Of a stretch of 64,000 nucleotides of DNA, positions 1 through 30,410 are shown piece after piece; positions within the stretch are counted from its first letter, which is position 1, and each line of letters opens with the position of its first letter. A model generated the notes under the pieces. That model was given only the letters and a program-made list of their open reading frames with translations, did no database searches and had not been told where the DNA came from. Source of the stretch: Eledone cirrhosa (Eukaryota); assembly GCA_964016885.1 (NCBI GenBank), contig OZ024744.1:42036001-42100000 (forward strand). The letters run 5' to 3'. Made by a program: the position numbers and the translations under genes.

Positions 1-596
1 CACATCATGGTACGACAACCAGAGATATCAGAGTGTCATGTTTGTGGACGGACGCCACCCCTGGAGGGAAATTAGCTAACCAGTGTAGAAAGGCCCTGAG
101 AAAGACCCACTTAAAAATAAAGGTGGTAGAAAAGCCAGGAACCACCATAAAATCCCTGATCAGCAAAACCTACCCTTTTAAGAAAACCCACTGTACCAAT
201 AGGAAATGTATCATATGTAAGGTGAACCCCCGGATAAACTGTAAAACTAGAAACGTAGTCTATAGCATAAGATGTACAGAGGGTACTTGCAGAAACACGA
301 CAACAACATACATAGGTGAGACAGCTCGTAGCATAGGTGAAAGGATAGACCAACACTGGGGGGAACTAAAAGGACGAAAAAACGGGTCAGTACTATACGA
401 ACATGCTAGACAACAACATGACGGTAACATAGACAACATAGAAATTAGAATAATATCTAAACATAGGAATGACCCAGCAGATAGGCAAATCAGAGAGGCC
501 AGTGAAATAGAAATTAGAAGACCAAAGCTAAACAGAAAGAATGAGTGGAACAACAACAACACCCAAACAAACAACACTGACCTAAGAGAAGTATAA
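1..596 (+). pseudogene. 3' part of PLE ORF (GIY-YIG endonuclease), copy 0, frameshifted
   Basis: GTGGACGGACGCC (4-bp duplication) near 45-57. Downstream frame encodes VVYSIRC...C...YIGETARS...H...H...E...LN. Confidence 0.9.
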
Positions 597-742
597 ATAA
601 ATAAGTAAATTAAATTAAATAAATAAAATAAGATAAATAAATACATACACAAGCACATAAACACACACTAGTCACCCAGCAGACACAACACTATACACAC
701 TAGTCACACTAGTCACACATAACACTATACACACACGCAAAC

Positions 743-834
743 GCATGCGCAAAGAAGACAAAATAAAATAAGATAAACAAACAAGCAAATAAATAAATAA
801 ATATATAGACAGACTGAACAAAAAAAAAATGGCG
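743..834 (+). promoter_or_regulatory. Candidate internal promoter motifs: NRF1-like GCATGCGCA and YY1-like AAAATGGCG, in every unit
   Basis: Motifs at 743-751 and 826-834. Both are retained in the diverged family copy (44008-44016, 44044-44052). Confidence 0.4.
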
Positions 835-865
835 TAGACATACAACACAACAGGAGGAACAATGA

Positions 866-922
866 ATATAACACCACTGACGATGTTGCAGATGTGCAAC
901 GAAAGATTTATGTAAATTATGT
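866..922 (+). ncRNA. Minimal type I hammerhead ribozyme motif in the inter-ORF region; also at ~5025, 9175, 13321, 17469, 21617, 25765 and 29911
   Basis: CTGACGA (877-883), T, stem II GTTGCA/TGCAAC, GAAA (901-904), loopless near-palindromic stem III AGATTT, UUA site. Proximal stem I is weak (2 bp, internal loop, then 6 bp). Confidence 0.7.
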
Positions 923-1108
923 AAACTATATATATGTGTGTTTGTCTATATTGTATCTGTATTATTTTTGACCGCCGGTCAGTCAATGGCAACATTGAGG
1001 ACCGAGTAAGTTAGATCGCAGATATATATATATAAAAGACAGCGAGAAGCGAAAACCAACCAAACAGTGAGTGTGTTCTGTTATTAATTCTGGCAATATT
1101 ACGCAAAT

Positions 1109-4100
1109 ATGACCCTCCCCAAATATAACAATATCTGTTTCGACACACGATTTCATATAAAAAACCTCGCAAAACTAATTCATCGCCGCTATGGCATTAG
1201 CTTGTGCCAAGCTGAAAGGTTATTGAAAGACACTGTTTTCTGTTATATAAAAACTACAATAACAACAGAACAAATCCGCTTCTTAAAACACTGTGTTTCC
1301 TCCAAAACATACACAACAAACATATCAAAACAAGTAAATAATTTATTATTGAACAAAACACAAGCTGAACGGCTAAAACACACAATAACAGTTAATATGA
1401 AAAGAACAACATACACAAAAGTCAACGCACTCTACAGACAAAAACGCATCAACGGTAAGGAAATCCGAAATCTCATCACAGCAAACGAGAGAGATGACTT
1501 CATGAGCGTCATCCGACGCGAAACGAAATATGCTCAAAACGAATGCTGTAGGCATTTCAAGAAGAAATTAGAATGGATGAATAAGAAAAAACTACAAGAA
1601 AGGAAAATCGAATATTCTCAAAAATACCCAGATAACATCGACAACATCCGTATGAGTGATGTAAAACTACCGGAAGAATTTACCAATGACCACACAGTAA
1701 ATATCTATGGGAACACTTTAATCAGTGAACAAGAACAACAAATCCTAAAGTTACCACCAAAATTTGCCATCTACAAAAAGATTAACCCTATGGAATGCAA
1801 AACGGAGCTGGAAAAGTGTTTCACAAAAATACGTTGGAATGCAAAGGTAAACAACAACAACAATAATAACGGTAGTAGTAATATAAACAATAACTCTGGG
1901 TATAGAAATAACAGCCATAACCATAACAATGGCAGGAAAGTGAGAAATAGTGATAATAGTAATAATACTAGCGATAGACAGAACAACAACAACCACAATA
2001 ATAATAATAATAGAAACGTTAACCACAGACACAGCAACAGTGACCACAGTAGTAATAACGGTAACAATACGAACAACAACAACAACAATAACCACAGTGG
2101 TAATAATGGAAATAGTACATGTAGCAACATCAACAAAAACAAGAAACATAATAATAGTAACAACCACAATGGTAGAAATAGCAGTAACAACAACAACAAT
2201 AACGGTGAAGTAAACAACAATACATCTAGCAATCATAACAATAATAATATTAATGCTAATGATAGAAACAACAACAACCACCATGATAACAATAATAGCA
2301 ACACACACAACTATGACGATAGAAATAACGACAACCCCTTAGAGAAACTATTTTTCAACCCAGCTGACAAAACATATAAGATGGGTAATATCTATCCTAC
2401 GAGGTTACCCTTTAATAAAAGAGTTTGCATACCACAGCAAATAGATGACGAGACGGAGGCACAGTTCACCATAGCTAGAAATAAGATTAGACAAGTAGTA
2501 GACAGGTACACTATGAGACAGAGCAGACCAGAGGCCCAACAACTTGGGATAAAACCTGTAGAAGGCTTGGTTAGCCTCAAGCAGCGCACAAGGGATGGTG
2601 AGGTAGTGTGTCTACCCACAGATAAGTCTGGTAGGATGTCAATAGATAGCATGCCGAACTACATCGAGGCAATGCAACCCCACATCACCAACACGAGCGA
2701 AGTTGCACAACTAACACACGATGGGAGAGAAAAAATCCTCAACGCTCACATGATGATGTGGACTGACATCCTAAAGCCAAGCAGACGCACTGCCAACAAC
2801 TTCCAGGCGTCTAACAATGGCATACCACCCTTGTATGGGCTCCGCAAAGACCACAAGACAGTCGACGACCCGACAACAGGACCACCAACAAGACCCGTAT
2901 GCGGAGCTAATATAGCTAGCAACTACAGGATCTCCTACTTCCTCTCAATGGTTATACGCCCCATAATCAAGATGTCCCCAGATGTATGTGAAAGTACAGA
3001 GGACCTCCTCAGCAGAATCAGTGAGTGCAACAAAAACAGGAGCCTATCCAACTGCATAATAGGCAGCATGGATGTGGTGTCACTGTACCCATCCATTAAC
3101 ATTGATTTTGCTGTGAAAAGATGTGTGGAGATGATCATTGAGAGTGAGGTGGAGTTCTGCGACGTCGACACAGACGAACTGGGCCTCCTACTTAGACTTA
3201 CCTACGACACTGACTACCTAGACAGCCATGACCTTAGATGTTTCTGCCCTAGTAGACCTATAAGAGGTAGACCCCCCACCATAACCTCAATGGCTAAAAA
3301 GACTCCCATAGGAAGGTGGATTGGGTGGACCAAAGCTATACGGACCCCCCAAAACACTGATCAGGTAAGAAAAATGGTCGCACATGCAATAGGGGCTAGT
3401 ATCAAAACTACCCTAAAGGGCCACATATTTAAGTTCAATGAGAAAATCTACACCCAAAATGAGGGAGCAGCCATCGGCGTCAGCATAGCTGGTGATGTTG
3501 CCAACCTTTTCATGGTATGGTGGGAAAGGAGACTTAAAGATCTCCTCCTTAATGAAAGCTCCATAGACCTCATCATGTACTCTCGTTATGTAGACGATAT
3601 CAATATAGTTATAAGAACACCCCCACTAGAGAGCACTAACAAGTTTGATTTAGAACGTAGCACGATGGAAAGCATCCAGCAGATAGCTAATTCCATACAC
3701 CAGAGTATAACTGTAACTATAGACTTCCCTTCCAAACACCCTAACAATAGACTACCTGTATTAGACACAGAACTCTGGATTAACACTATAGACGAGAGAG
3801 CCCAAATTCTCCACTCACACTATGCTAAACCCATGGCCTCCAAATACCTGATACTCAAAAACTCAGCAATGTCCAGTAGTGCTAAGTTTAATATTCTGAT
3901 CGCAGATTTGGTACGAGTGATGAAGAATGTGTCCAGCATGTGCGACCCAACAGAAATGGAAGGACACATCCAACACTTCATCAACCGCATGCAGTTCTCT
4001 GGCTACAACCAAAGAGACAGAGTCAGAGTATACGAAGGAGCCATGGAAAAGTATAAGACCCTCATAGAACTGGACATGAAAGGAATTTGCCCACTATACA

Positions 4101-4748
4101 GGAGCAAATCATGGAATAGCTTAGATAGGGCTAGACATAAGATAGGGAAGGCCACATCATGGTACGACAACCAGAGATATCAGAGTGTCATGTTTGTGGA
4201 CGGACGCCACCCCTGGAGGGAAATTAGCTAACCAGTGTAGAAAGGCCCTGAGAAAGACCCACTTAAAAATAAAGGTGGTAGAAAAGCCAGGAACCACCAT
4301 AAAATCCCTGATCAGCAAAACCTACCCTTTTAAGAAAACCCACTGTACCAATAGGAAATGTATCATATGTAAGGTGAACCCCCGGATAAACTGTAAAACT
4401 AGAAACGTAGTCTATAGCATAAGATGTACAGAGGGTACTTGCAGAAACACGACAACAACATACATAGGTGAGACAGCTCGTAGCATAGGTGAAAGGATAG
4501 ACCAACACTGGGGGGAACTAAAAGGACGAAAAAACGGGTCAGTACTATACGAACATGCTAGACAACAACATGACGGTAACATAGACAACATAGAAATTAG
4601 AATAATATCTAAACATAGGAATGACCCAGCAGATAGGCAAATCAGAGAGGCCAGTGAAATAGAAATTAGAAGACCAAAGCTAAACAGAAAGAATGAGTGG
4701 AACAACAACAACACCCAAACAAACAACACTGACCTAAGAGAAGTATAA
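1109..4748 (+). pseudogene. PLE RT-GIY-YIG ORF copy 1, split by a 4-bp duplication (1040-aa RT-only frame plus out-of-frame endonuclease)
   Basis: ORFs 1109..4231 and 4185..4748. GACG is duplicated at ~4200 relative to intact copies. Confidence 0.92.
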
Positions 4749-5260: not shown

Positions 5261-8200
5261 ATGACCCTCCCCAAATATAACAATATCTGTTTCGACACAC
5301 GATTTCATATAAAAAACCTCGCAAAACTAATTCATCGCCGCTATGGCATTAGCTTGTGCCAAGCTGAAAGGTTATTGAAAGACACTGTTTTCTGTTATAT
5401 AAAAACTACAATAACAACAGAACAAATCCGCTTCTTAAAACACTGTGTTTCCTCCAAAACATACACAACAAACATATCAAAACAAGTAAATAATTTATTA
5501 TTGAACAAAACACAAGCTGAACGGCTAAAACACACAATAACAGTTAATATGAAAAGAACAACATACACAAAAGTCAACGCACTCTACAGACAAAAACGCA
5601 TCAACGGTAAGGAAATCCGAAATCTCATCACAGCAAACGAGAGAGATGACTTCATGAGCGTCATCCGACGCGAAACGAAATATGCTCAAAACGAATGCTG
5701 TAGGCATTTCAAGAAGAAATTAGAATGGATGAATAAGAAAAAACTACAAGAAAGGAAAATCGAATATTCTCAAAAATACCCAGATAACATCGACAACATC
5801 CGTATGAGTGATGTAAAACTACCGGAAGAATTTACCAATGACCACACAGTAAATATCTATGGGAACACTTTAATCAGTGAACAAGAACAACAAATCCTAA
5901 AGTTACCACCAAAATTTGCCATCTACAAAAAGATTAACCCTATGGAATGCAAAACGGAGCTGGAAAAGTGTTTCACAAAAATACGTTGGAATGCAAAGGT
6001 AAACAACAACAACAATAATAACGGTAGTAGTAATATAAACAATAACTCTGGGTATAGAAATAACAGCCATAACCATAACAATGGCAGGAAAGTGAGAAAT
6101 AGTGATAATAGTAATAATACTAGCGATAGACAGAACAACAACAACCACAATAATAATAATAATAGAAACGTTAACCACAGACACAGCAACAGTGACCACA
6201 GTAGTAATAACGGTAACAATACGAACAACAACAACAACAATAACCACAGTGGTAATAATGGAAATAGTACATGTAGCAACATCAACAAAAACAAGAAACA
6301 TAATAATAGTAACAACCACAATGGTAGAAATAGCAGTAACAACAACAACAATAACGGTGAAGTAAACAACAATACATCTAGCAATCATAACAATAATAAT
6401 ATTAATGCTAATGATAGAAACAACAACAACCACCATGATAACAATAATAGCAACACACACAACTATGACGATAGAAATAACGACAACCCCTTAGAGAAAC
6501 TATTTTTCAACCCAGCTGACAAAACATATAAGATGGGTAATATCTATCCTACGAGGTTACCCTTTAATAAAAGAGTTTGCATACCACAGCAAATAGATGA
6601 CGAGACGGAGGCACAGTTCACCATAGCTAGAAATAAGATTAGACAAGTAGTAGACAGGTACACTATGAGACAGAGCAGACCAGAGGCCCAACAACTTGGG
6701 ATAAAACCTGTAGAAGGCTTGGTTAGCCTCAAGCAGCGCACAAGGGATGGTGAGGTAGTGTGTCTACCCACAGATAAGTCTGGTAGGATGTCAATAGATA
6801 GCATGCCGAACTACATCGAGGCAATGCAACCCCACATCACCAACACGAGCGAAGTTGCACAACTAACACACGATGGGAGAGAAAAAATCCTCAACGCTCA
6901 CATGATGATGTGGACTGACATCCTAAAGCCAAGCAGACGCACTGCCAACAACTTCCAGGCGTCTAACAATGGCATACCACCCTTGTATGGGCTCCGCAAA
7001 GACCACAAGACAGTCGACGACCCGACAACAGGACCACCAACAAGACCCGTATGCGGAGCTAATATAGCTAGCAACTACAGGATCTCCTACTTCCTCTCAA
7101 TGGTTATACGCCCCATAATCAAGATGTCCCCAGATGTATGTGAAAGTACAGAGGACCTCCTCAGCAGAATCAGTGAGTGCAACAAAAACAGGAGCCTATC
7201 CAACTGCATAATAGGCAGCATGGATGTGGTGTCACTGTACCCATCCATTAACATTGATTTTGCTGTGAAAAGATGTGTGGAGATGATCATTGAGAGTGAG
7301 GTGGAGTTCTGCGACGTCGACACAGACGAACTGGGCCTCCTACTTAGACTTACCTACGACACTGACTACCTAGACAGCCATGACCTTAGATGTTTCTGCC
7401 CTAGTAGACCTATAAGAGGTAGACCCCCCACCATAACCTCAATGGCTAAAAAGACTCCCATAGGAAGGTGGATTGGGTGGACCAAAGCTATACGGACCCC
7501 CCAAAACACTGATCAGGTAAGAAAAATGGTCGCACATGCAATAGGGGCTAGTATCAAAACTACCCTAAAGGGCCACATATTTAAGTTCAATGAGAAAATC
7601 TACACCCAAAATGAGGGAGCAGCCATCGGCGTCAGCATAGCTGGTGATGTTGCCAACCTTTTCATGGTATGGTGGGAAAGGAGACTTAAAGATCTCCTCC
7701 TTAATGAAAGCTCCATAGACCTCATCATGTACTCTCGTTATGTAGACGATATCAATATAGTTATAAGAACACCCCCACTAGAGAGCACTAACAAGTTTGA
7801 TTTAGAACGTAGCACGATGGAAAGCATCCAGCAGATAGCTAATTCCATACACCAGAGTATAACTGTAACTATAGACTTCCCTTCCAAACACCCTAACAAT
7901 AGACTACCTGTATTAGACACAGAACTCTGGATTAACACTATAGACGAGAGAGCCCAAATTCTCCACTCACACTATGCTAAACCCATGGCCTCCAAATACC
8001 TGATACTCAAAAACTCAGCAATGTCCAGTAGTGCTAAGTTTAATATTCTGATCGCAGATTTGGTACGAGTGATGAAGAATGTGTCCAGCATGTGCGACCC
8101 AACAGAAATGGAAGGACACATCCAACACTTCATCAACCGCATGCAGTTCTCTGGCTACAACCAAAGAGACAGAGTCAGAGTATACGAAGGAGCCATGGAA

Positions 8201-8900
8201 AAGTATAAGACCCTCATAGAACTGGACATGAAAGGAATTTGCCCACTATACAGGAGCAAATCATGGAATAGCTTAGATAGGGCTAGACATAAGATAGGGA
8301 AGGCCACATCATGGTACGACAACCAGAGATATCAGAGTGTCATGTTTGTGGACGGACGCCACCCCTGGAGGGAAATTAGCTAACCAGTGTAGAAAGGCCC
8401 TGAGAAAGACCCACTTAAAAATAAAGGTGGTAGAAAAGCCAGGAACCACCATAAAATCCCTGATCAGCAAAACCTACCCTTTTAAGAAAACCCACTGTAC
8501 CAATAGGAAATGTATCATATGTAAGGTGAACCCCCGGATAAACTGTAAAACTAGAAACGTAGTCTATAGCATAAGATGTACAGAGGGTACTTGCAGAAAC
8601 ACGACAACAACATACATAGGTGAGACAGCTCGTAGCATAGGTGAAAGGATAGACCAACACTGGGGGGAACTAAAAGGACGAAAAAACGGGTCAGTACTAT
8701 ACGAACATGCTAGACAACAACATGACGGTAACATAGACAACATAGAAATTAGAATAATATCTAAACATAGGAATGACCCAGCAGATAGGCAAATCAGAGA
8801 GGCCAGTGAAATAGAAATTAGAAGACCAAAGCTAAACAGAAAGAATGAGTGGAACAACAACAACACCCAAACAAACAACACTGACCTAAGAGAAGTATAA
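5261..8900 (+). pseudogene. PLE RT-GIY-YIG ORF copy 2, same 4-bp frameshift
   Basis: ORFs 5261..8383 and 8337..8900. GACG duplication at ~8352. Confidence 0.92.
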
Positions 8901-9410: not shown

Positions 9411-12400
9411 ATGACCCTCCCCAAATATAACAATATCTGTTTCGACACACGATTTCATATAAAAAACCTCGCAAAACTAATTCATCGCCGCTATGGCATT
9501 AGCTTGTGCCAAGCTGAAAGGTTATTGAAAGTCACTGTTTTCTGTTATATAAAAACTACAATAACAACAGAACAAATCCGCTTCTTAAAACACTGTGTTT
9601 CCTCCAAAACATACACAACAAACATATCAAAACAAGTAAATAATTTATTATTGAACAAAACACAAGCTGAACGGCTAAAACACACAATAACAGTTAATAT
9701 GAAAAGAACAACATACACAAAAGTCAACGCACTCTACAGACAAAAACGCATCAACGGTAAGGAAATCCGAAATCTCATCACAGCAAACGAGAGAGATGAC
9801 TTCATGAGCGTCATCCGACGCGAAACGAAATATGCTCAAAACGAATGCTGTAGGCATTTCAAGAAGAAATTAGAATGGATGAATAAGAAAAAACTACAAG
9901 AAAGGAAAATCGAATATTCTCAAAAATACCCAGATAACATCGACAACATCCGTATGAGTGATGTAAAACTACCGGAAGAATTTACCAATGACCACACAGT
10001 AAATATCTATGGGAACACTTTAATCAGTGAACAAGAACAACAAATCCTAAAGTTACCACCAAAATTTGCCATCTACAAAAAGATTAACCCTATGGAATGC
10101 AAAACGGAGCTGGAAAAGTGTTTCACAAAAATACGTTGGAATGCAAAGGTAAACAACAACAACAATAATAACGGTAGTAGTAATATAAACAATAACTCTG
10201 GGTATAGAAATAACAGCCATAACCATAACAATGGCAGGAAAGTGAGAAATAGTGATAATAGTAATAATACTAGCGATAGACAGAACAACAACAACCACAA
10301 TAATAATAATAATAGAAACGTTAACCACAGACACAGCAACAGTGACCACAGTAGTAATAACGGTAACAATACGAACAACAACAACAACAATAACCACAGT
10401 GGTAATAATGGAAATAGTACATGTAGCAACATCAACAAAAACAAGAAACATAATAATAGTAACAACCACAATGGTAGAAATAGCAGTAACAACAACAACA
10501 ATAACGGTGAAGTAAACAACAATACATCTAGCAATCATAACAATAATAATATTAATGCTAATGATAGAAACAACAACAACCACCATGATAACAATAATAG
10601 CAACACACACAACTATGACGATAGAAATAACGACAACCCCTTAGAGAAACTATTTTTCAACCCAGCTGACAAAACATATAAGATGGGTAATATCTATCCT
10701 ACGAGGTTACCCTTTAATAAAAGAGTTTGCATACCACAGCAAATAGATGACGAGACGGAGGCACAGTTCACCATAGCTAGAAATAAGATTAGACAAGTAG
10801 TAGACAGGTACACTATGAGACAGAGCAGACCAGAGGCCCAACAACTTGGGATAAAACCTGTAGAAGGCTTGGTTAGCCTCAAGCAGCGCACAAGGGATGG
10901 TGAGGTAGTGTGTCTACCCACAGATAAGTCTGGTAGGATGTCAATAGATAGCATGCCGAACTACATCGAGGCAATGCAACCCCACATCACCAACACGAGC
11001 GAAGTTGCACAACTAACACACGATGGGAGAGAAAAAATCCTCAACGCTCACATGATGATGTGGACTGACATCCTAAAGCCAAGCAGACGCACTGCCAACA
11101 ACTTCCAGGCGTCTAACAATGGCATACCACCCTTGTATGGGCTCCGCAAAGACCACAAGACAGTCGACGACCCGACAACAGGACCACCAACAAGACCCGT
11201 ATGCGGAGCTAATATAGCTAGCAACTACAGGATCTCCTACTTCCTCTCAATGGTTATACGCCCCATAATCAAGATGTCCCCAGATGTATGTGAAAGTACA
11301 GAGGACCTCCTCAGCAGAATCAGTGAGTGCAACAAAAACAGGAGCCTATCCAACTGCATAATAGGCAGCATGGATGTGGTGTCACTGTACCCATCCATTA
11401 ACATTGATTTTGCTGTGAAAAGATGTGTGGAGATGATCATTGAGAGTGAGGTGGAGTTCTGCGACGTCGACACAGACGAACTGGGCCTCCTACTTAGACT
11501 TACCTACGACACTGACTACCTAGACAGCCATGACCTTAGATGTTTCTGCCCTAGTAGACCTATAAGAGGTAGACCCCCCACCATAACCTCAATGGCTAAA
11601 AAGACTCCCATAGGAAGGTGGATTGGGTGGACCAAAGCTATACGGACCCCCCAAAACACTGATCAGGTAAGAAAAATGGTCGCACATGCAATAGGGGCTA
11701 GTATCAAAACTACCCTAAAGGGCCACATATTTAAGTTCAATGAGAAAATCTACACCCAAAATGAGGGAGCAGCCATCGGCGTCAGCATAGCTGGTGATGT
11801 TGCCAACCTTTTCATGGTATGGTGGGAAAGGAGACTTAAAGATCTCCTCCTTAATGAAAGCTCCATAGACCTCATCATGTACTCTCGTTATGTAGACGAT
11901 ATCAATATAGTTATAAGAACACCCCCACTAGAGAGCACTAACAAGTTTGATTTAGAACGTAGCACGATGGAAAGCATCCAGCAGATAGCTAATTCCATAC
12001 ACCAGAGTATAACTGTAACTATAGACTTCCCTTCCAAACACCCTAACAATAGACTACCTGTATTAGACACAGAACTCTGGATTAACACTATAGACGAGAG
12101 AGCCCAAATTCTCCACTCACACTATGCTAAACCCATGGCCTCCAAATACCTGATACTCAAAAACTCAGCAATGTCCAGTAGTGCTAAGTTTAATATTCTG
12201 ATCGCAGATTTGGTACGAGTGATGAAGAATGTGTCCAGCATGTGCGACCCAACAGAAATGGAAGGACACATCCAACACTTCATCAACCGCATGCAGTTCT
12301 CTGGCTACAACCAAAGAGACAGAGTCAGAGTATACGAAGGAGCCATGGAAAAGTATAAGACCCTCATAGAACTGGACATGAAAGGAATTTGCCCACTATA

Positions 12401-13046
12401 CAGGAGCAAATCATGGAATAGCTTAGATAGGGCTAGACATAAGATAGGGAAGGCCACATCATGGTACGACAACCAGAGATATCAGAGTGTCATGTTTGTG
12501 GACGCCACCCCTGGAGGGAAATTAGCTAACCAGTGTAGAAAGGCCCTGAGAAAGACCCACTTAAAAATAAAGGTGGTAGAAAAGCCAGGAACCACCATAA
12601 AATCCCTGATCAGCAAAACCTACCCTTTTAAGAAAACCCACTGTACCAATAGGAAATGTATCATATGTAAGGTGAACCCCCGGATAAACTGTAAAACTAG
12701 AAACGTAGTCTATAGCATAAGATGTACAGAGGGTACTTGCAGAAACACGACAACAACATACATAGGTGAGACAGCTCGTAGCATAGGTGAAAGGATAGAC
12801 CAACACTGGGGGGAACTAAAAGGACGAAAAAACGGGTCAGTACTATACGAACATGCTAGACAACAACATGACGGTAACATAGACAACATAGAAATTAGAA
12901 TAATATCTAAACATAGGAATGACCCAGCAGATAGGCAAATCAGAGAGGCCAGTGAAATAGGAATTAGAAGACCAAAGCTAAACAGAAAGAATGAGTGGAA
13001 CAACAACAACACCCAAACAAACAACACTGACCTAAGAGAAGTATAA
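9411..13046 (+). CDS. Intact PLE polyprotein (1211 aa): N-terminal domain, Asn-rich insert, reverse transcriptase, Cys-rich linker, GIY-YIG endonuclease; copy 3
   Basis: RT motifs TDKSG, LYGLRKDHK, TRPV, SMDVVSLYPSI, QNEGAAIG, RYVDDI, LPVLD. Linker CTNRKCIIC. Endonuclease VVY-C-C-YIGET-R-H-H-E-LN with CCHH pattern. DK without G, a long insert between RT motifs 3 and 4, and FVDATPGGKLA fit the Naiad clade. Confidence 0.93.
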   Translation: MTLPKYNNICFDTRFHIKNLAKLIHRRYGISLCQAERLLKVTVFCYIKTTITTEQIRFLKHCVSSKTYTTNISKQVNNLLLNKTQAERLKHTITVNMKRTTYTKVNALYRQKRINGKEIRNLITANERDDFMSVIRRETKYAQNECCRHFKKKLEWMNKKKLQERKIEYSQKYPDNIDNIRMSDVKLPEEFTNDHTVNIYGNTLISEQEQQILKLPPKFAIYKKINPMECKTELEKCFTKIRWNAKVNNNNNNNGSSNINNNSGYRNNSHNHNNGRKVRNSDNSNNTSDRQNNNNHNNNNNRNVNHRHSNSDHSSNNGNNTNNNNNNNHSGNNGNSTCSNINKNKKHNNSNNHNGRNSSNNNNNNGEVNNNTSSNHNNNNINANDRNNNNHHDNNNSNTHNYDDRNNDNPLEKLFFNPADKTYKMGNIYPTRLPFNKRVCIPQQIDDETEAQFTIARNKIRQVVDRYTMRQSRPEAQQLGIKPVEGLVSLKQRTRDGEVVCLPTDKSGRMSIDSMPNYIEAMQPHITNTSEVAQLTHDGREKILNAHMMMWTDILKPSRRTANNFQASNNGIPPLYGLRKDHKTVDDPTTGPPTRPVCGANIASNYRISYFLSMVIRPIIKMSPDVCESTEDLLSRISECNKNRSLSNCIIGSMDVVSLYPSINIDFAVKRCVEMIIESEVEFCDVDTDELGLLLRLTYDTDYLDSHDLRCFCPSRPIRGRPPTITSMAKKTPIGRWIGWTKAIRTPQNTDQVRKMVAHAIGASIKTTLKGHIFKFNEKIYTQNEGAAIGVSIAGDVANLFMVWWERRLKDLLLNESSIDLIMYSRYVDDINIVIRTPPLESTNKFDLERSTMESIQQIANSIHQSITVTIDFPSKHPNNRLPVLDTELWINTIDERAQILHSHYAKPMASKYLILKNSAMSSSAKFNILIADLVRVMKNVSSMCDPTEMEGHIQHFINRMQFSGYNQRDRVRVYEGAMEKYKTLIELDMKGICPLYRSKSWNSLDRARHKIGKATSWYDNQRYQSVMFVDATPGGKLANQCRKALRKTHLKIKVVEKPGTTIKSLISKTYPFKKTHCTNRKCIICKVNPRINCKTRNVVYSIRCTEGTCRNTTTTYIGETARSIGERIDQHWGELKGRKNGSVLYEHARQQHDGNIDNIEIRIISKHRNDPADRQIREASEIGIRRPKLNRKNEWNNNNTQTNNTDLREV

Positions 13047-20700: not shown

Positions 20701-21292
20701 CAAATCATGGAATAGCTTAGATAGGGCTAGACATAAGATAGGGAAGGCCACATCATGGTACGACAACCAGAGATATCAGAGTGTCATGTTTGTGGACGCC
20801 ACCCCTGGAGGGAAATTAGCTAACCAGTGTAGAAAGGCCCTGAGAAAGACCCACTTAAAAATAAAGGTGGTAGAAAAGCCAGGAACCACCATAAAATCCC
20901 TGATCAGCAAAACCTACCCTTTTAAGAAAACCCACTGTACCAATAGGAAATGTATCATATGTAAGGTGAACCCCCGGATAAACTGTAAAACTAGAAACGT
21001 AGTCTATAGCATAAGATGTACAGAGGGTACTTGCAGAAACACGACAACAACATACATAGGTGAGACAGCTCGTAGCATAGGTGAAAGGATAGACCAACAC
21101 TGGGGGGAACTAAAAGGACGAAAAAACGGGTCAGTACTATACGAACATGCTAGACAACAACATGACGGTAACATAGACAACATAGAAATTAGAATAATAT
21201 CTAAACATAGGAATGACCCAGCAGATAGGCAAATCAGAGAGGCCAGTGAAATAGAAATTAGAAGACCAAAGCTAAACAGAAAGAATGAGTGA
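17705..21292 (+). CDS. PLE RT-GIY-YIG polyprotein, copy 5, lacking the last 16 aa
   Basis: 1195 aa. TGG>TGA at 21290-21292, downstream of the endonuclease LN motif. Confidence 0.9.
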   Translation: MTLPKYNNICFDTRFHIKNLAKLIHRRYGISLCQAERLLKDTVFCYIKTTITTEQIRFLKHCVSSKTYTTNISKQVNNLLLNKTQAERLKHTITVNMKRTTYTKVNALYRQKRINGKEIRNLITANERDDFMSVIRRETKYAQNECCRHFKKKLEWMNKKKLQERKIEYSQKYPDNIDNIRMSDVKLPEEFTNDHTVNIYGNTLISEQEQQILKFPPKFAIYKKINPMECKTELEKCFTKIRWNAKVNNNNNNNGSSNINNNSGYRNNSHNHNNGRKVRNSDNSNNTSDRQNNNNHNNNNNRNVNHRHSNSDHSSNNGNNTNNNNNNNHSGNNGNSTCSNINKNKKHNNSNNHNGRNSSNNNNNNGEVNNNTSSNHNNNNINANDRNNNNHHDNNNSNTHNYDDRNNDNPLEKLFFNPADKTYKMGNIYPTRLPFNKRVCIPQQIDDETEAQFTIARNKIRQVVDRYTMRQSRPEAQQLGIKPVEGLVSLKQRTRDGEVVCLPTDKSGRMSIDSMPNYIEAMQPHITNTSEVAQLTHDGREKILNAHMMMWTDILKPSRRTANNFQASNNGIPPLYGLRKDHKTVDDPTTGPPTRPVCGANIASNYRISYFLSMVIRPIIKMSPDVCESTEDLLSRISECNKNRSLSNCIIGSMDVVSLYPSINIDFAVKRCVEMIIESEVEFCDVDTDELGLLLRLTYDTDYLDSHDLRCFCPSRPIRGRPPTITSMAKKTPIGRWIGWTKAIRTPQNTDQVRKMVAHAIGASIKTTLKGHIFKFNEKIYTQNEGAAIGVSIAGDVANLFMVWWERRLKDLLLNESSIDLIMYSRYVDDINIVIRTPPLESTNKFDLERSTMESIQQIANSIHQSITVTIDFPSKHPNNRLPVLDTELWINTIDERAQILHSHYAKPMASKYLILKNSAMSSSAKFNILIADLVRVMKNVSSMCDPTEMEGHIQHFINRMQFSGYNQRDRVRVYEGAMEKYKTLIELDMKGICPLYRSKSWNSLDRARHKIGKATSWYDNQRYQSVMFVDATPGGKLANQCRKALRKTHLKIKVVEKPGTTIKSLISKTYPFKKTHCTNRKCIICKVNPRINCKTRNVVYSIRCTEGTCRNTTTTYIGETARSIGERIDQHWGELKGRKNGSVLYEHARQQHDGNIDNIEIRIISKHRNDPADRQIREASEIEIRRPKLNRKNE

Positions 21293-21852: not shown

Positions 21853-24800
21853 ATGACCCTCCCCAAATATAACAATATCTGTTTCGACACACGATTTCAT
21901 ATAAAAAACCTCGCAAAACTAATTCATCGCCGCTATGGCATTAGCTTGTGCCAAGCTGAAAGGTTATTGAAAGACACTGTTTTCTGTTATATAAAAACTA
22001 CAATAACAACAGAACAAATCCGCTTCTTAAAACACTGTGTTTCCTCCAAAACATACACAACAAACATATCAAAACAAGTAAATAATTTATTATTGAACAA
22101 AACACAAGCTGAACGGCTAAAACACACAATAACAGTTAATATGAAAAGAACAACATACACAAAAGTCAACGCAGTCTACAGACAAAAACGCATCAACGGT
22201 AAGGAAATCCGAAATCTCATCACAGCAAACGAGAGAGATGACTTCATGAGCGTCATCCGACGCGAAACGAAATATGCTCAAAACGAATGCTGTAGGCATT
22301 TCAAGAAGAAATTAGAATGGATGAATAAGAAAAAACTACAAGAAAGGAAAATCGAATATTCTCAAAAATACCCAGATAACATCGACAACATCCGTATGAG
22401 TGATGTAAAACTACCGGAAGAATTTACCAATGACCACACAGTAAATATCTATGGGAACACTTTAATCAGTGAACAAGAACAACAAATCCTAAAGTTCCCA
22501 CCAAAATTTGCCATCTACAAAAAGATTAACCCTATGGAATGCAAAACGGAGCTGGAAAAGTGTTTCACAAAAATACGTTGGAATGCAAAGGTAAACAACA
22601 ACAACAATAATAACGGTAGTAGTAATATAAACAATAACTCTGGGTATAGAAATAACAGCCATAACCATAACAATGGCAGGAAAGTGAGAAATAGTGATAA
22701 TAGTAATAATACTAGCGATAGACAGAACAACAACAACCACAATAATAATAATAATAGAAACGTTAACCACAGACACAGCAACAGTGACCACAGTAGTAAT
22801 AACGGTAACAATACGAACAACAACAACAACAATAACCACAGTGGTAATAATGGAAATAGTACATGTAGCAACATCAACAAAAACAAGAAACATAATAATA
22901 GTAACAACCACAATGGTAGAAATAGCAGTAACAACAACAACAATAACGGTGAAGTAAACAACAATACATCTAGCAATCATAACAATAATAATATTAATGC
23001 TAATGATAGAAACAACAACAACCACCATGATAACAATAATAGCAACACACACAACTATGACGATAGAAATAACGACAACCCCTTAGAGAAACTATTTTTC
23101 AACCCAGCTGACAAAACATATAAGATGGGTAATATCTATCCTACGAGGTTACCCTTTAATAAAAGAGTTTGCATACCACAGCAAATAGATGACGAGACGG
23201 AGGCACAGTTCACCATAGCTAGAAATAAGATTAGACAAGTAGTAGACAGGTACACTATGAGACAGAGCAGACCAGAGGCCCAACAACTTGGGATAAAACC
23301 TGTAGAAGGCTTGGTTAGCCTCAAGCAGCGCACAAGGGATGGTGAGGTAGTGTGTCTACCCACAGATAAGTCTGGTAGGATGTCAATAGATAGCATGCCG
23401 AACTACATCGAGGCAATGCAACCCCACATCACCAACACGAGCGAAGTTGCACAACTAACACACGATGGGAGAGAAAAAATCCTCAACGCTCACATGATGA
23501 TGTGGACTGACATCCTAAAGCCAAGCAGACGCACTGCCAACAACTTCCAGGCGTCTAACAATGGCATACCACCCTTGTATGGGCTCCGCAAAGACCACAA
23601 GACAGTCGACGACCCGACAACAGGACCACCAACAAGACCCGTATGCGGAGCTAATATAGCTAGCAACTACAGGATCTCCTACTTCCTCTCAATGGTTATA
23701 CGCCCCATAATCAAGATGTCCCCAGATGTATGTGAAAGTACAGAGGACCTCCTCAGCAGAATCAGTGAGTGCAACAAAAACAGGAGCCTATCCAACTGCA
23801 TAATAGGCAGCATGGATGTGGTGTCACTGTACCCATCCATTAACATTGATTTTGCTGTGAAAAGATGTGTGGAGATGATCATTGAGAGTGAGGTGGAGTT
23901 CTGCGACGTCGACACAGACGAACTGGGCCTCCTACTTAGACTTACCTACGACACTGACTACCTAGACAGCCATGACCTTAGATGTTTCTGCCCTAGTAGA
24001 CCTATAAGAGGTAGACCCCCCACCATAACCTCAATGGCTAAAAAGACTCCCATAGGAAGGTGGATTGGGTGGACCAAAGCTATACGGACCCCCCAAAACA
24101 CTGATCAGGTAAGAAAAATGGTCGCACATGCAATAGGGGCTAGTATCAAAACTACCCTAAAGGGCCACATATTTAAGTTCAATGAGAAAATCTACACCCA
24201 AAATGAGGGAGCAGCCATCGGCGTCAGCATAGCTGGTGATGTTGCCAACCTTTTCATGGTATGGTGGGAAAGGAGACTTAAAGATCTCCTCCTTAATGAA
24301 AGCTCCATAGACCTCATCATGTACTCTCGTTATGTAGACGATATCAATATAGTTATAAGAACACCCCCACTAGAGAGCACTAACAAGTTTGATTTAGAAC
24401 GTAGCACGATGGAAAGCATCCAGCAGATAGCTAATTCCATACACCAGAGTATAACTGTAACTATAGACTTCCCTTCCAAACACCCTAACAATAGACTACC
24501 TGTATTAGACACAGAACTCTGGATTAACACTATAGACGAGAGAGCCCAAATTCTCCACTCACACTATGCTAAACCCATGGCCTCCAAATACCTGATACTC
24601 AAAAACTCAGCAATGTCCAGTAGTGCTAAGTTTAATATTCTGATCGCAGATTTGGTACGAGTGATGAAGAATGTGTCCAGCATGTGCGACCCAACAGAAA
24701 TGGAAGGACACATCCAACACTTCATCAACCGCATGCAGTTCTCTGGCTACAACCAAAGAGACAGAGTCAGAGTATACGAAGGAGCCATGGAAAAGTATAA

Positions 24801-25488
24801 GACCCTCATAGAACTGGACATGAAAGGAATTTGCCCACTATACAGGAGCAAATCATGGAATAGCTTAGATAGGGCTAGACATAAGATAGGGAAGGCCACA
24901 TCATGGTACGACAACCAGAGATATCAGAGTGTCATGTTTGTGGACGCCACCCCTGGAGGGAAATTAGCTAACCAGTGTAGAAAGGCCCTGAGAAAGACCC
25001 ACTTAAAAATAAAGGTGGTAGAAAAGCCAGGAACCACCATAAAATCCCTGATCAGCAAAACCTACCCTTTTAAGAAAACCCACTGTACCAATAGGAAATG
25101 TATCATATGTAAGGTGAACCCCCGGATAAACTGTAAAACTAGAAACGTAGTCTATAGCATAAGATGTACAGAGGGTACTTGCAGAAACACGACAACAACA
25201 TACATAGGTGAGACAGCTCGTAGCATAGGTGAAAGGATAGACCAACACTGGGGGGAACTAAAAGGACGAAAAAACGGGTCAGTACTATACGAACATGCTA
25301 GACAACAACATGACGGTAACATAGACAACATAGAAATTAGAATAATATCTAAACATAGGAATGACCCAGCAGATAGGCAAATCAGAGAGGCCAGTGAAAT
25401 AGAAATTAGAAGACCAAAGCTAAACAGAAAGAATGAGTGGAACAACAACAACACCCAAACAAACAACACTGACCTAAGAGAAGTATAA
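21853..25488 (+). CDS. Intact PLE RT-GIY-YIG polyprotein, copy 6
   Basis: 1211-aa ORF with the same motifs. Confidence 0.93.
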   Translation: MTLPKYNNICFDTRFHIKNLAKLIHRRYGISLCQAERLLKDTVFCYIKTTITTEQIRFLKHCVSSKTYTTNISKQVNNLLLNKTQAERLKHTITVNMKRTTYTKVNAVYRQKRINGKEIRNLITANERDDFMSVIRRETKYAQNECCRHFKKKLEWMNKKKLQERKIEYSQKYPDNIDNIRMSDVKLPEEFTNDHTVNIYGNTLISEQEQQILKFPPKFAIYKKINPMECKTELEKCFTKIRWNAKVNNNNNNNGSSNINNNSGYRNNSHNHNNGRKVRNSDNSNNTSDRQNNNNHNNNNNRNVNHRHSNSDHSSNNGNNTNNNNNNNHSGNNGNSTCSNINKNKKHNNSNNHNGRNSSNNNNNNGEVNNNTSSNHNNNNINANDRNNNNHHDNNNSNTHNYDDRNNDNPLEKLFFNPADKTYKMGNIYPTRLPFNKRVCIPQQIDDETEAQFTIARNKIRQVVDRYTMRQSRPEAQQLGIKPVEGLVSLKQRTRDGEVVCLPTDKSGRMSIDSMPNYIEAMQPHITNTSEVAQLTHDGREKILNAHMMMWTDILKPSRRTANNFQASNNGIPPLYGLRKDHKTVDDPTTGPPTRPVCGANIASNYRISYFLSMVIRPIIKMSPDVCESTEDLLSRISECNKNRSLSNCIIGSMDVVSLYPSINIDFAVKRCVEMIIESEVEFCDVDTDELGLLLRLTYDTDYLDSHDLRCFCPSRPIRGRPPTITSMAKKTPIGRWIGWTKAIRTPQNTDQVRKMVAHAIGASIKTTLKGHIFKFNEKIYTQNEGAAIGVSIAGDVANLFMVWWERRLKDLLLNESSIDLIMYSRYVDDINIVIRTPPLESTNKFDLERSTMESIQQIANSIHQSITVTIDFPSKHPNNRLPVLDTELWINTIDERAQILHSHYAKPMASKYLILKNSAMSSSAKFNILIADLVRVMKNVSSMCDPTEMEGHIQHFINRMQFSGYNQRDRVRVYEGAMEKYKTLIELDMKGICPLYRSKSWNSLDRARHKIGKATSWYDNQRYQSVMFVDATPGGKLANQCRKALRKTHLKIKVVEKPGTTIKSLISKTYPFKKTHCTNRKCIICKVNPRINCKTRNVVYSIRCTEGTCRNTTTTYIGETARSIGERIDQHWGELKGRKNGSVLYEHARQQHDGNIDNIEIRIISKHRNDPADRQIREASEIEIRRPKLNRKNEWNNNNTQTNNTDLREV

Positions 25489-26000: not shown

Positions 26001-29000
26001 ATGACCCTCCCCAAATATAACAATATCTGTTTCGACACACGATTTCATATAAAAAACCTCGCAAAACTAATTCATCGCCGCTATGGCATTAGCTTGTGCC
26101 AAGCTGAAAGGTTATTGAAAGACACTGTTTTCTGTTATATAAAAACTACAATAACAACAGAACAAATCCGCTTCTTAAAACACTGTGTTTCCTCCAAAAC
26201 ATACACAACAAACATATCAAAACAAGTAAATAATTTATTATTGAACAAAACACAAGCTGAACGGCTAAAACACACAATAACAGTTAATATGAAAAGAACA
26301 ACATACACAAAAGTCAACGCACTCTACAGACAAAAACGCATCAACGGTAAGGAAATCCGAAATCTCATCACAGCAAACGAGAGAGATGACTTCATGAGCG
26401 TCATCCGACGCGAAACGAAATATGCTCAAAACGAATGCTGTAGGCATTTCAAGAAGAAATTAGAATGGATGAATAAGAAAAAACTACAAGAAAGGAAAAT
26501 CGAATATTCTCAAAAATACCCAGATAACATCGACAACATCCGTATGAGTGATGTAAAACTACCGGAAGAATTTACCAATGACCACACAGTAAATATCTAT
26601 GGGAACACTTTAATCAGTGAACAAGAACAACAAATCCTAAAGTTCCCACCAAAATTTGCCATCTACAAAAAGATTAACCCTATGGAATGCAAAACGGAGC
26701 TGGAAAAGTGTTTCACAAAAATACGTTGGAATGCAAAGGTAAACAACAACAACAATAATAACGGTAGTAGTAATATAAACAATAACTCTGGGTATAGAAA
26801 TAACAGCCATAACCATAACAATGGCAGGAAAGTGAGAAATAGTGATAATAGTAATAATACTAGCGATAGACAGAACAACAACAACCACAATAATAATAAT
26901 AATAGAAACGTTAACCACAGACACAGCAACAGTGACCACAGTAGTAATAACGGTAACAATACGAACAACAACAACAACAATAACCACAGTGGTAATAATG
27001 GAAATAGTACATGTAGCAACATCAACAAAAACAAGAAACATAATAATAGTAACAACCACAATGGTAGAAATAGCAGTAACAACAACAACAATAACGGTGA
27101 AGTAAACAACAATACATCTAGCAATCATAACAATAATAATATTAATGCTAATGATAGAAACAACAACAACCACCATGATAACAATAATAGCAACACACAC
27201 AACTATGACGATAGAAATAACGACAACCCCTTAGAGAAACTATTTTTCAACCCAGCTGACAAAACATATAAGATGGGTAATATCTATCCTACGAGGTTAC
27301 CCTTTAATAAAAGAGTTTGCATACCACAGCAAATAGATGACGAGACGGAGGCACAGTTCACCATAGCTAGAAATAAGATTAGACAAGTAGTAGACAGGTA
27401 CACTATGAGACAGAGCAGACCAGAGGCCCAACAACTTGGGATAAAACCTGTAGAAGGCTTGGTTAGCCTCAAGCAGCGCACAAGGGATGGTGAGGTAGTG
27501 TGTCTACCCACAGATAAGTCTGGTAGGATGTCAATAGATAGCATGCCGAACTACATCGAGGCAATGCAACCCCACATCACCAACACGAGCGAAGTTGCAC
27601 AACTAACACACGATGGGAGAGAAAAAATCCTCAACGCTCACATGATGATGTGGACTGACATCCTAAAGCCAAGCAGACGCACTGCCAACAACTTCCAGGC
27701 GTCTAACAATGGCATACCACCCTTGTATGGGCTCCGCAAAGACCACAAGACAGTCGACGACCCGACAACAGGACCACCAACAAGACCCGTATGCGGAGCT
27801 AATATAGCTAGCAACTACAGGATCTCCTACTTCCTCTCAATGGTTATACGCCCCATAATCAAGATGTCCCCAGATGTATGTGAAAGTACAGAGGACCTCC
27901 TCAGCAGAATCAGTGAGTGCAACAAAAACAGGAGCCTATCCAACTGCATAATAGGCAGCATGGATGTGGTGTCACTGTACCCATCCATTAACATTGATTT
28001 TGCTGTGAAAAGATGTGTGGAGATGATCATTGAGAGTGAGGTGGAGTTCTGCGACGTCGACACAGACGAACTGGGCCTCCTACTTAGACTTACCTACGAC
28101 ACTGACTACCTAGACAGCCATGACCTTAGATGTTTCTGCCCTAGTAGACCTATAAGAGGTAGACCCCCCACCATAACCTCAATGGCTAAAAAGACTCCCA
28201 TAGGAAGGTGGATTGGGTGGACCAAAGCTATACGGACCCCCCAAAACACTGATCAGGTAAGAAAAATGGTCGCACATGCAATAGGGGCTAGTATCAAAAC
28301 TACCCTAAAGGGCCACATATTTAAGTTCAATGAGAAAATCTACACCCAAAATGAGGGAGCAGCCATCGGCGTCAGCATAGCTGGTGATGTTGCCAACCTT
28401 TTCATGGTATGGTGGGAAAGGAGACTTAAAGATCTCCTCCTTAATGAAAGCTCCATAGACCTCATCATGTACTCTCGTTATGTAGACGATATCAATATAG
28501 TTATAAGAACACCCCCACTAGAGAGCACTAACAAGTTTGATTTAGAACGTAGCACGATGGAAAGCATCCAGCAGATAGCTAATTCCATACACCAGAGTAT
28601 AACTGTAACTATAGACTTCCCTTCCAAACACCCTAACAATAGACTACCTGTATTAGACACAGAACTCTGGATTAACACTATAGACGAGAGAGCCCAAATT
28701 CTCCACTCACACTATGCTAAACCCATGGCCTCCAAATACCTGATACTCAAAAACTCAGCAATGTCCAGTAGTGCTAAGTTTAATATTCTGATCGCAGATT
28801 TGGTACGAGTGATGAAGAATGTGTCCAGCATGTGCGACCCAACAGAAATGGAAGGACACATCCAACACTTCATCAACCGCATGCAGTTCTCTGGCTACAA
28901 CCAAAGAGACAGAGTCAGAGTATACGAAGGAGCCATGGAAAAGTATAAGACCCTCATAGAACTGGACATGAAAGGAATTTGCCCACTATACAGGAGCAAA

Positions 29001-29636
29001 TCATGGAATAGCTTAGATAGGGCTAGACATAAGATAGGGAAGGCCACATCATGGTACGACAACCAGAGATATCAGAGTGTCATGTTTGTGGACGCCACCC
29101 CTGGAGGGAAATTAGCTAACCAGTGTAGAAAGGCCCTGAGAAAGACCCACTTAAAAATAAAGGTGGTAGAAAAGCCAGGAACCACCATAAAATCCCTGAT
29201 CAGCAAAACCTACCCTTTTAAGAAAACCCACTGTACCAATAGGAAATGTATCATATGTAAGGTGAACCCCCGGATAAACTGTAAAACTAGAAACGTAGTC
29301 TATAGCATAAGATGTACAGAGGGTACTTGCAGAAACACGACAACAACATACATAGGTGAGACAGCTCGTAGCATAGGTGAAAGGATAGACCAACACTGGG
29401 GGGAACTAAAAGGACGAAAAGACGGGTCAGTACTATACGAACATGCTAGACAACAACATGACGGTAACATAGACAACATAGAAATTAGAATATTATCTAA
29501 ACATAGGAATGACCCAGCAGATAGGCAAATCAGAGAGGCCAGTGAAATAGAAATTAGAAGACCAAAGCTAAACAGAAAGAATGAGTGGAACAACAACAAC
29601 ACCCAAACAAACAACACTGACCTAAGAGAAGTATAA
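26001..29636 (+). CDS. Intact PLE RT-GIY-YIG polyprotein, copy 7
   Basis: 1211-aa ORF with the same motifs. Confidence 0.93.
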   Translation: MTLPKYNNICFDTRFHIKNLAKLIHRRYGISLCQAERLLKDTVFCYIKTTITTEQIRFLKHCVSSKTYTTNISKQVNNLLLNKTQAERLKHTITVNMKRTTYTKVNALYRQKRINGKEIRNLITANERDDFMSVIRRETKYAQNECCRHFKKKLEWMNKKKLQERKIEYSQKYPDNIDNIRMSDVKLPEEFTNDHTVNIYGNTLISEQEQQILKFPPKFAIYKKINPMECKTELEKCFTKIRWNAKVNNNNNNNGSSNINNNSGYRNNSHNHNNGRKVRNSDNSNNTSDRQNNNNHNNNNNRNVNHRHSNSDHSSNNGNNTNNNNNNNHSGNNGNSTCSNINKNKKHNNSNNHNGRNSSNNNNNNGEVNNNTSSNHNNNNINANDRNNNNHHDNNNSNTHNYDDRNNDNPLEKLFFNPADKTYKMGNIYPTRLPFNKRVCIPQQIDDETEAQFTIARNKIRQVVDRYTMRQSRPEAQQLGIKPVEGLVSLKQRTRDGEVVCLPTDKSGRMSIDSMPNYIEAMQPHITNTSEVAQLTHDGREKILNAHMMMWTDILKPSRRTANNFQASNNGIPPLYGLRKDHKTVDDPTTGPPTRPVCGANIASNYRISYFLSMVIRPIIKMSPDVCESTEDLLSRISECNKNRSLSNCIIGSMDVVSLYPSINIDFAVKRCVEMIIESEVEFCDVDTDELGLLLRLTYDTDYLDSHDLRCFCPSRPIRGRPPTITSMAKKTPIGRWIGWTKAIRTPQNTDQVRKMVAHAIGASIKTTLKGHIFKFNEKIYTQNEGAAIGVSIAGDVANLFMVWWERRLKDLLLNESSIDLIMYSRYVDDINIVIRTPPLESTNKFDLERSTMESIQQIANSIHQSITVTIDFPSKHPNNRLPVLDTELWINTIDERAQILHSHYAKPMASKYLILKNSAMSSSAKFNILIADLVRVMKNVSSMCDPTEMEGHIQHFINRMQFSGYNQRDRVRVYEGAMEKYKTLIELDMKGICPLYRSKSWNSLDRARHKIGKATSWYDNQRYQSVMFVDATPGGKLANQCRKALRKTHLKIKVVEKPGTTIKSLISKTYPFKKTHCTNRKCIICKVNPRINCKTRNVVYSIRCTEGTCRNTTTTYIGETARSIGERIDQHWGELKGRKDGSVLYEHARQQHDGNIDNIEIRILSKHRNDPADRQIREASEIEIRRPKLNRKNEWNNNNTQTNNTDLREV

Positions 29637-30226
29637 ATAAATAAGTAAATTAAATTAAATAAATAAAATAAGATAAATAAATACATACACAAGCACATAA
29701 ACACACACTAGTCACCCAGCAGACACAACACTATACACACTAGTCACACATCACACATAACACTATACACACACGCAAACGCATGCGCAAAGAAGACAAA
29801 ATAAAATAAGATAAACAAACAAGCAAATAAATAAATAAATATATAGACAGACTGAACAAAAAAAAAATGGCGTAGACATACAACACAACAGGAGGAACAA
29901 TGAATATAACACCACTGACGATGTTGCAGATGTGCAACGAAAGATTTATGTAAATTATGTAAACTATATATATATGTGTTTGTCTATATTGTATCTGTAT
30001 TATTTTTGACCGCCGGTCAGTCAATGGCAACATTGAGGACCGAGTAAGTTAGATCGCAGATATATATATATAAAAGACAGCGAGAAGCGAAAACCAACCA
30101 AACAGTGAGTGTGTTCTGTTATTAATTCTGGCAATATTACGCAAATATGACCCTCCCCAAATATAACAATATCTGTTTCGACACACGATTTCATATAAAA
30201 AACCTCGCAAAACTAATTCATCGCCG

Positions 30227-30230
<4 letters not shown>

Positions 30231-30317
<87 letters not shown>

Positions 30318-30350
30318 TATACATATATACATATATACACGTATGCACAT

Positions 30351-30410
<60 letters not shown>

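Follow-up and report, generated by a model that had tools for sequence, protein, structure and literature searches.

Organization of the locus

A long tandem array of a Penelope-like element (PLE) was analyzed in the genome of Eledone cirrhosa (assembly GCA_964016885.1). The window, i.e. the whole stretch of 64,000 nucleotides (nt) under analysis, started at position 42,036,001 of contig OZ024744.1 (C28), and its positions 1-30230 formed a direct tandem with a period of 4146-4152 nt and an identity of 99.2-99.9% in a self-BLAST comparison. The layout of the locus was read from the window together with 70 kb of the left-hand neighbouring sequence. The array extended beyond the window: the whole locus comprised 62.3 kb (G000:C28:42,003,927-42,066,230) and was interstitial, at 42.0 Mb of the 136.5-Mb contig. 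Another 32 kb of it lay to the left of the window, where six further plus units and one partial unit were followed by an inversion. Overall, the plus arm contained 13 full units and one partial unit and ended with a tail at +84, and the inverted (minus) arm contained one full and one partial unit (1.8 units) and ended with a tail at +26. The arms were arranged head to head with both 3' ends pointing outward, each on (TA)n. The inversion junction held a 27-nt piece in three copies; the inner ends of the arms were independent of each other and joined through a repeated short sequence.

The right half of the plus arm (window 1-30229, plus strand), delimited by self-BLAST and the locus layout, consisted of the end of unit P06, the full units P07-P13 and the tail. 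The 3' part of P06 (1-1108) comprised the end of the open reading frame (ORF), a 4-nt duplication within 37-61, and the 3' untranslated region (UTR)/pseudo-long terminal repeat (pLTR) with a hammerhead. Seven full ORFs started at 1109, 5261, 9411, 13557, 17705, 21853 and 26001. Those of P07 (1109-5260; ORF 1109-4231) and P08 (5261-9410; ORF 5261-8383) were frameshifted to 1040 amino acids (aa) by the 4-nt duplication, and the endonuclease of P07 was out of frame. Full-length 1211-aa ORFs were present in P09 (9411-13556; ORF 9411-13046), P10 (13557-17704; ORF 13557-17192), P12 (21853-26000; ORF 21853-25488) and P13 (ORF 26001-29636), and an early stop in P11 (17705-21852; ORF 17705-21292) left a protein of 1195 aa, 16 aa short. 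The 3' UTR/pLTR of P13 (29637-30146) contained the hammerhead together with short repeats of AT and CA. It was followed by the long (+84) tail (30147-30229), which consisted of the first codons of a further ORF and whose final TA merged into the target. The last unit thus stopped ~84 nt inside this further ORF start and met (TA)n at 30228; the (TA)n-rich target microsatellite (30228-30408) showed no readable target-site duplication. Each unit joined the next seamlessly and carried a single pLTR and a single hammerhead.

The first-pass annotation had described a seamless tandem of seven full ~4.15-kb units with four intact ORFs and divergence at a few sites, and this description was borne out by the self-BLAST, the junctions, the four 1211-aa ORFs and a count of 16 variant positions among all units. 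Its statement that only the last unit had a true 3' end on (TA)n held within the window; a second such end was found to the left, on the minus strand.

The encoded protein and the class of the element

The 1211-aa protein was composed of an N-terminal region, an Asn-rich low-complexity insert, a reverse transcriptase (RT), a CX4CxxC linker and a GIY-YIG endonuclease (EN). The RT motifs were DKSG, D655 and YVDD (827-830), and two Cys residues were located between the VVY and YIG motifs of the endonuclease. When searched separately, the RT region matched Pfam RVT_1 (E 1.6e-5) and the C-terminus matched GIY-YIG PF01541 (E 0.0013), both below the curated cut-offs; Pfam gave no match for the whole protein, and a PDB sequence search returned no solved relative. 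Of 155 relatives found, the best named one was a hypothetical RT protein of Octopus vulgaris (68%), and clade names were absent from the homologues. A structure model was built from 105 sequences with a predicted local distance difference test score (pLDDT) of 92. Its top two Foldseek matches were telomerase reverse transcriptases (E 1e-8), followed by a group II intron RT; the RT of the element is predicted by this model to be related to telomerase RT. The residues Y1101, C1105, C1110, Y1117, G1119, R1128 and H1132 were conserved in 102-105 of the 105 aligned proteins, and the linker Zn-finger C1078-X4-C1083-xx-C1086 in 103-105 of them, while the second His of the CCHH motif was assigned by a sequence reading only.

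By the criteria of PMC8557442 (here and below, published reports are cited for what their accessible text states), the predicted protein is that of a canonical C-terminal EN+ PLE of the Neptune/Nematis type, either clade. Partial tandems, an inverted 5'-truncated arm and a one-sided tail, the hallmarks of EN+ PLEs, were all found. The Hydra clade, in which CCHH is lost and the linker reads CxCX5C, was rejected by the presence of the Cys pair and of the CX4CxxC linker, and the Naiad and Chlamys clades, with an N-terminal EN, by the C-terminal position of the EN. The earlier view of a PLE present as a permuted monomer in a real concatemer was upheld.

The hammerhead motif

A minimal type I hammerhead was read from the sequence at 866-922 (plus strand) with a predicted cleavage site at 910|911, as the first-pass annotation had placed it, at one hammerhead per unit. 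The cleavage sites of the seven other hammerheads of the window were computed from the ORF starts, with an offset of 199 nt before each ATG, as 5062, 9212, 13358, 17506, 21654, 25802 and 29948. The motif had an extra base after A9, a G10.1-C11.1 pair and a palindromic helix III, and its core and stem II were intact. In comparison with a 72%-identical relative, two of the six stem II pairs were changed on both sides, which is essentially a single comparison. Hence, manual reading and limited covariation indicate that the pLTR carries a putative minimal type I hammerhead with the features described in PMC4209133. Rfam did not detect it at either the gathering or the E-value thresholds, and the RNAfold prediction for the monomer did not stand out (z -1.0).

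All eight other multi-unit loci (C1-C3) belonged to a sub-lineage without a 9-nt repeat directly behind the hammerhead cut; of the typed single loci, 35 of 71 did (Fisher p=0.007; 0.03 when the C28 array, which carries the repeat, was included). This sub-lineage was also the most intact one. The contrast may serve as a natural test of whether the form of the ribozyme affects the concatemer length. Hammerhead-like cores of unrelated sequence also recurred in the flanks (L002:7789-7863, L021:1307-1381, L003:1080-1147 and L053:823-890), which suggests that more PLE or retrozyme families are present in the genome.

Tails and pairing of the insertion ends

Exact patterns were counted across the genome. 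Ends followed by TA were matched 2379 times at +26, 1473 times at +69 and 1706 times at +84, and read-through ORF starts 252 times. At least ~5,500 fresh ends of one family were thus present, and young dispersed copies numbered in the thousands.

The tails were classified as short (+26) or long (+69/+84), and the two ends of the same insertion were compared. The first set covered C1 up to 153.3 Mb with 267 listed ends (33 listed rows beyond this point were left out). Among the outward-facing pairs within 15 kb, 35 of 37 joined a short and a long tail, two were long-long and none was short-short (p ~5e-9). The second set was drawn from the first 100 listed ORF-start matches, of which all 80 remaining single ones were retrieved. 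In 38 stretches, representing 37 loci, both ends were readable (two of these loci were common to the first set), and a short tail was paired with a longer one in 37/37 loci. The multi-unit loci behaved alike, with seven of eight short-long and one long-long.

That a two-armed insertion nearly always combines a short with a long tail suggests that one dimer primes in a coordinated manner at two start sites. The one-sided tail itself is already published (PMC8557442, PMC3846280), and the formation of tandem and inverted PLE structures has been named an open question (PMC8557442). Frangieh et al. (2024) reported that two RT start sites bracket the tail and that both target strands are extended, and predicted a dimer (PMC11167929). 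No paper on twin priming in PLEs was found in the open literature, although subscription papers and supplements could contain one. The pairing rule, combined with the passage of the ribozyme site described below, turns the one-sided tail and the two in vitro start sites into a testable model of coordinated priming. We regard the short-plus-long rule as a more useful result than the array itself.

Template and arm length

Further, the upstream extent of the arms was determined. Among the full-length arms, 57/80 passed the ribozyme site and reached over 200 nt upstream, and 3/80 stopped within ~15 nt of this site, with no pile-up. The hammerhead type agreed in 49/52 tandem partners and in 26/28 opposite arms, where 0.43 was expected by chance. 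Since the arms pass the ribozyme site and the partners keep their hammerhead type, the template was continuous in cis, either as an uncleaved read-through RNA or as a circle. The idea of a template read on past the ribozyme site was thereby supported across the family; self-cleavage, circles and more-than-unit RNAs were proposed by Cervera and de la Pena in 2014 (PMC4209133). Random template jumping among the RNAs of the family was rejected by the concordance of the tandem partners. Fold-back as a general origin of the inverted arms was rejected by inspection, as the inner ends were mostly independent and neither arm included the other (e.g. C13:17.95 Mb).

In the 100 ORF-start matches listed first (of 252), 8/91 arms had two or more units; in the 100 sub-lineage-marker matches listed first (of 144), a set that overlaps the former, this was the case for 16/82 arms, counted by eye. 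The other listed arms did not exceed three units. With a continuation rate of 0.1-0.2 per unit, the expected number of 13-mers was 3e-10 to 1e-6. The dimers and trimers may have arisen from a continuous template or by later duplication, and the data were compatible with both.

Several individual loci were recorded. At C1:181.30 Mb (L025-L026), a 118-nt pLTR deletion was repeated three times in the plus arm and was absent from the minus arm. Three full units with one common frameshift were present at C1:14.38 Mb (L021-L022), where a 30-nt piece was duplicated at the inversion junction. Another three-unit arm with an inverted partner was seen at G000:C6:30.047-30.059 Mb.

Variation among the units

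Of the 16 variant positions, ten occurred in single units and four were common to 3-7 of the 13 plus units; of the remaining two, one was common to P01 and the full minus unit and one distinguished the arms. The four shared variants were located in staggered runs of neighbouring plus units, with 11 state changes along the array against 23.4 in shuffled order (p=2.5e-4). In the four-gamete test, all four combinations were observed in 4/6 marker pairs, which requires recombination or recurrent change. The shared markers alone defined seven unit haplotypes, and identical recombinant units were neighbours (P04=P05, P06=P07 and, at the shared markers, P11/P12).

A toy simulation of copying from a single template gave a mean of 0.02 shared sites, and at least four such sites were reached in 0/20,000 runs, whereas the plus arm has four. 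With unequal exchange as the growth process, 51-78% of runs reached at least four shared sites at a similar number of private sites.

Three alleles were private to the locus, with 3/3, 8/8 and 7/7 of their genome matches falling inside it. The private pLTR allele was present in seven of the 16 pLTR regions of the locus and nowhere else, and the common allele gave 1553 matches. A fourth allele had three outside matches; two of them had other haplotypes and did not resemble progeny, and the third was of insufficient length for typing. Because the three private alleles were found nowhere else in this assembly, the array is no detectable source locus, and it left no detectable progeny there. Four public DNA runs from other samples contained near-identical sequence with only the common allele at unit position 645. 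Contigs of the runs X1, X2, X3 and X24, labelled as different organisms, matched the element with zero differences over up to 821 nt, which indicates that the family is common to close relatives or has recently moved.

Origin of the 13-unit arm

We propose, with moderate confidence, that the locus began as an ordinary short two-armed, head-to-head insertion into (TA)n, whose units later multiplied through unequal exchange and gene conversion among themselves. Both ends of the array and its junction followed the pattern of the dispersed insertions. In the proposed sequence of events, the protein of the element, probably as a dimer, would cut (TA)n and, starting at two sites a short way into the ORF, prime one cDNA on each strand of the target. 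Both cDNAs would then be extended across the ribozyme site along a continuous template (uncleaved read-through RNA or circle), giving arms of 1-3 units, and their 3' ends would be joined by microhomology. Finally, the direct repeats of the plus arm would mispair and expand over many generations and pass new mutations to their neighbours, with some conversion across the inversion. Expansion of this kind has been documented: transposable element (TE) dimers expanded to ~16 copies by unequal exchange, with tandems sharing terminal repeats (PMC5932611), and short TE tandems expanded in the same way (PMC7215508). The array is likely a proto-satellite, an early stage in the conversion of an active retroelement into a satellite, and its private markers are sufficient to follow exchange unit by unit. 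Satellite-like amplification, one of the origins offered by the first-pass annotation, fitted best. Repeated insertion into a previous copy was rejected, as the junctions carried neither a tail nor a TA scar.

Several observations weigh against expansion after insertion. Private alleles at unit positions 10, 645 and 3750 occurred in both the plus and the inverted arms, which requires either several conversions across the inversion, a process left out of the simulation, or a mixed template. Variants common to subsets of units were found in 4/8 short loci of 2-3 units, and some of the mixing may therefore belong to the insertion process. Only ~10 private changes were present in 54 kb, which leaves little time for many exchanges. 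The 13 units are a count from the assembly and a provisional one. In addition, 138 of the 252 ORF-start matches were outside the listing, and other long arrays may therefore exist.

The alleles crossing the inversion and the subset-shared variants of the short loci keep alive another origin, which we consider unlikely: a single retrotransposition event, or a few of them, would have produced the long arm by copying a heterogeneous template, either a long read-through RNA of a multimeric source or a few closely related RNAs (circles) among which the RT switched. The passage of the ribozyme site and the haplotypes kept within and across arms agree with it, as do the private alleles common to both arms and the short locus that repeats its pLTR deletion in one arm only. 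The private changes amount to ~2e-4 per base, about the level typical of RT errors. However, a 55-kb cDNA would be required when other listed arms end by three units, the pairs P04=P05, P06=P07 and P11/P12 would require the same switch twice within 224 nt, and a source with the private alleles is absent from the assembly.

An assembly artefact, in which the number of units was inflated or scrambled, e.g. by stitching two shorter allelic arrays, is judged less likely still. The units are over 99.8% alike, the longest exact direct repeat of the locus reaches 8.3 kb, and tandem repeats are known to cause false calls in long-read assemblies (PMC9977147). No record bridging the inversion junction was found in the four public runs, which is uninformative on the locus, as they represent other samples. 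On the other hand, seven unit haplotypes mean that even two stitched alleles need at least four units on one chromosome; the shared substitutions are unlike random read errors, and no Ns were present in the window or in the 70 kb to its left. A misassembly of just 1-2 copies is very unlikely.

About as doubtful as an artefact is a further, speculative scheme, in which PLEs would insert by coordinated double priming. Each target strand would receive one cDNA, and a single RT dimer would begin the two cDNAs at two fixed positions of one endless (circular) RNA; template switching among a few sister circles would write concatemers of more than 50 kb in a single event. If true, a retroelement would make coding satellite arrays directly.

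It is very improbable that a single circular monomer RNA was copied at least 13 times by rolling-circle reverse transcription with nothing afterwards. The seamless permuted units, with a hammerhead in each, would suit this mechanism, which has been proposed for PLE tandems (PMC4209133). It predicts private errors only, however, and the four shared variants in staggered runs, the four-gamete violations and the simulation of a single template contradict it as the sole origin, contrary to what the first-pass annotation had considered. In vitro, moreover, ribozyme cleavage was dispensable and unprocessed RNA was the main substrate (PMC11167929). No direct precedent for rolling circles or for long arrays of full-length EN+ PLEs was found in the open literature; subscription papers and supplements could contain one.

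Least credible is the view of the array as the family's master source or as a telomere-like or centromeric structure. ORFs of at least 1150 aa were present in 11/14 array units against 29/65 complete single copies (Fisher p=0.04), in favour of this view, although the units are non-independent, sub-lineage B gave 23/32, and 6/65 were misread via indels near the start. The private pLTR allele had no match outside the locus against the 1553 of the common allele, and with the private alleles confined to this locus the earlier suggestion of a source locus was not sustained. The interstitial position, the absence of telomeric repeat runs for the three motifs tested, and the presence of an endonuclease argue against a telomere-like structure, and the A-rich sense strand of the array had the same base composition as a dispersed copy. 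The first-pass annotation had raised a telomere and had named an ordinary interstitial left boundary as the finding that decides against it. The array ended 32 kb to the left in the inverted arm on (TA)n, with no chromosome end; the left boundary was thus of that ordinary kind, and the telomere reading was refuted. The locus is a curiosity of a known element class and no new telomere system.

Neighbouring and related sequences

To the right of the array, a 475-aa ORF (window 39209-40636, plus strand) encoded the RT end and the endonuclease of another PLE and was followed by (AT)n. It showed the CxCX5C, RWK-like, CxxC and CxH motifs of the Hydra clade when read by eye, and Pfam gave no match. 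The 72%-identical relative was represented by a 5'-truncated copy (42901-44350, plus strand) with its own hammerhead at 44089-44161. Its tail ended on (TA)n after ~80 nt of the ORF start, which indicates that the tail position is conserved. Two dimers of 141-142 nt, flanked by (TA)n, were located ~1.7 kb apart at 48334-48616 and 50360-50631. Their consensus units resembled reverse complements of each other, and they are possibly another two-armed insertion or one resembling a miniature inverted-repeat transposable element (MITE).

Comparison with known systems

Arrays of the HeT-A/TART type are located at the chromosome end, are attached to telomeric repeats and have one polarity. Athena and Coprina lack the endonuclease (EN-) and are attached to telomeric repeats, whereas the present locus is EN+ and interstitial. 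A telomeric array like any of these was rejected by the position at 42.0/136.5 Mb and by the inverted left arm on (TA)n.

Among the EN+ PLEs of the Neptune/Nematis type (Craig et al. 2021, PMC8557442), the locus is distinguished by 13 full units in one arm; no such arm length for an EN+ PLE turned up in the open literature. Compared with the same report, the tail ends at +26, +69 and +84 correspond to a tail of 43 or 58 nt and not of 30-40 nt, and the DKG motif reads DKS.

PAc, the Poseidon element of Anolis (PMC11167929), is similar in that its tail is bracketed by RT start sites within the ORF start, in its AT-rich targets and in its tandem genomic organisation; both target strands were cut and extended by PAc in vitro, and a dimer was predicted. 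The two insertion ends nearly always used different start sites here, a feature not mentioned in the accessible text of that report. The hammerhead cut is positioned 199 nt before the ATG, whereas that of PAc is 26 nt after it, and the linker Zn-finger is present, unlike in PAc. Compared with the Penelope elements of Adineta vaga (Arkhipova et al. 2013, PMC3846280), the Asn-rich tract precedes the RT, the array is assembled and countable, and the inner junctions are mostly non-palindromic.

The locus resembles the satellites derived from TE tandems (McGurk and Barbash 2018, PMC5932611) and the Cassandra arrays (PMC7215508) in that a short tandem grew to more than 10 copies, most likely by unequal exchange, and in the terminal repeats common to adjacent units. 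It differs in its seed, a PLE insertion in place of the double insertion whose junction carries a target duplication (PMC5932611), and in that a complete RT-endonuclease is still encoded by most units. A head-to-tail arrangement with a type I hammerhead in every unit is also known from the non-LTR retrozymes (bioRxiv 10.64898/2026.07.22.740005) and the telomeric EN- PLEs; the retrozymes are short and non-coding, whereas the locus described here is coding.

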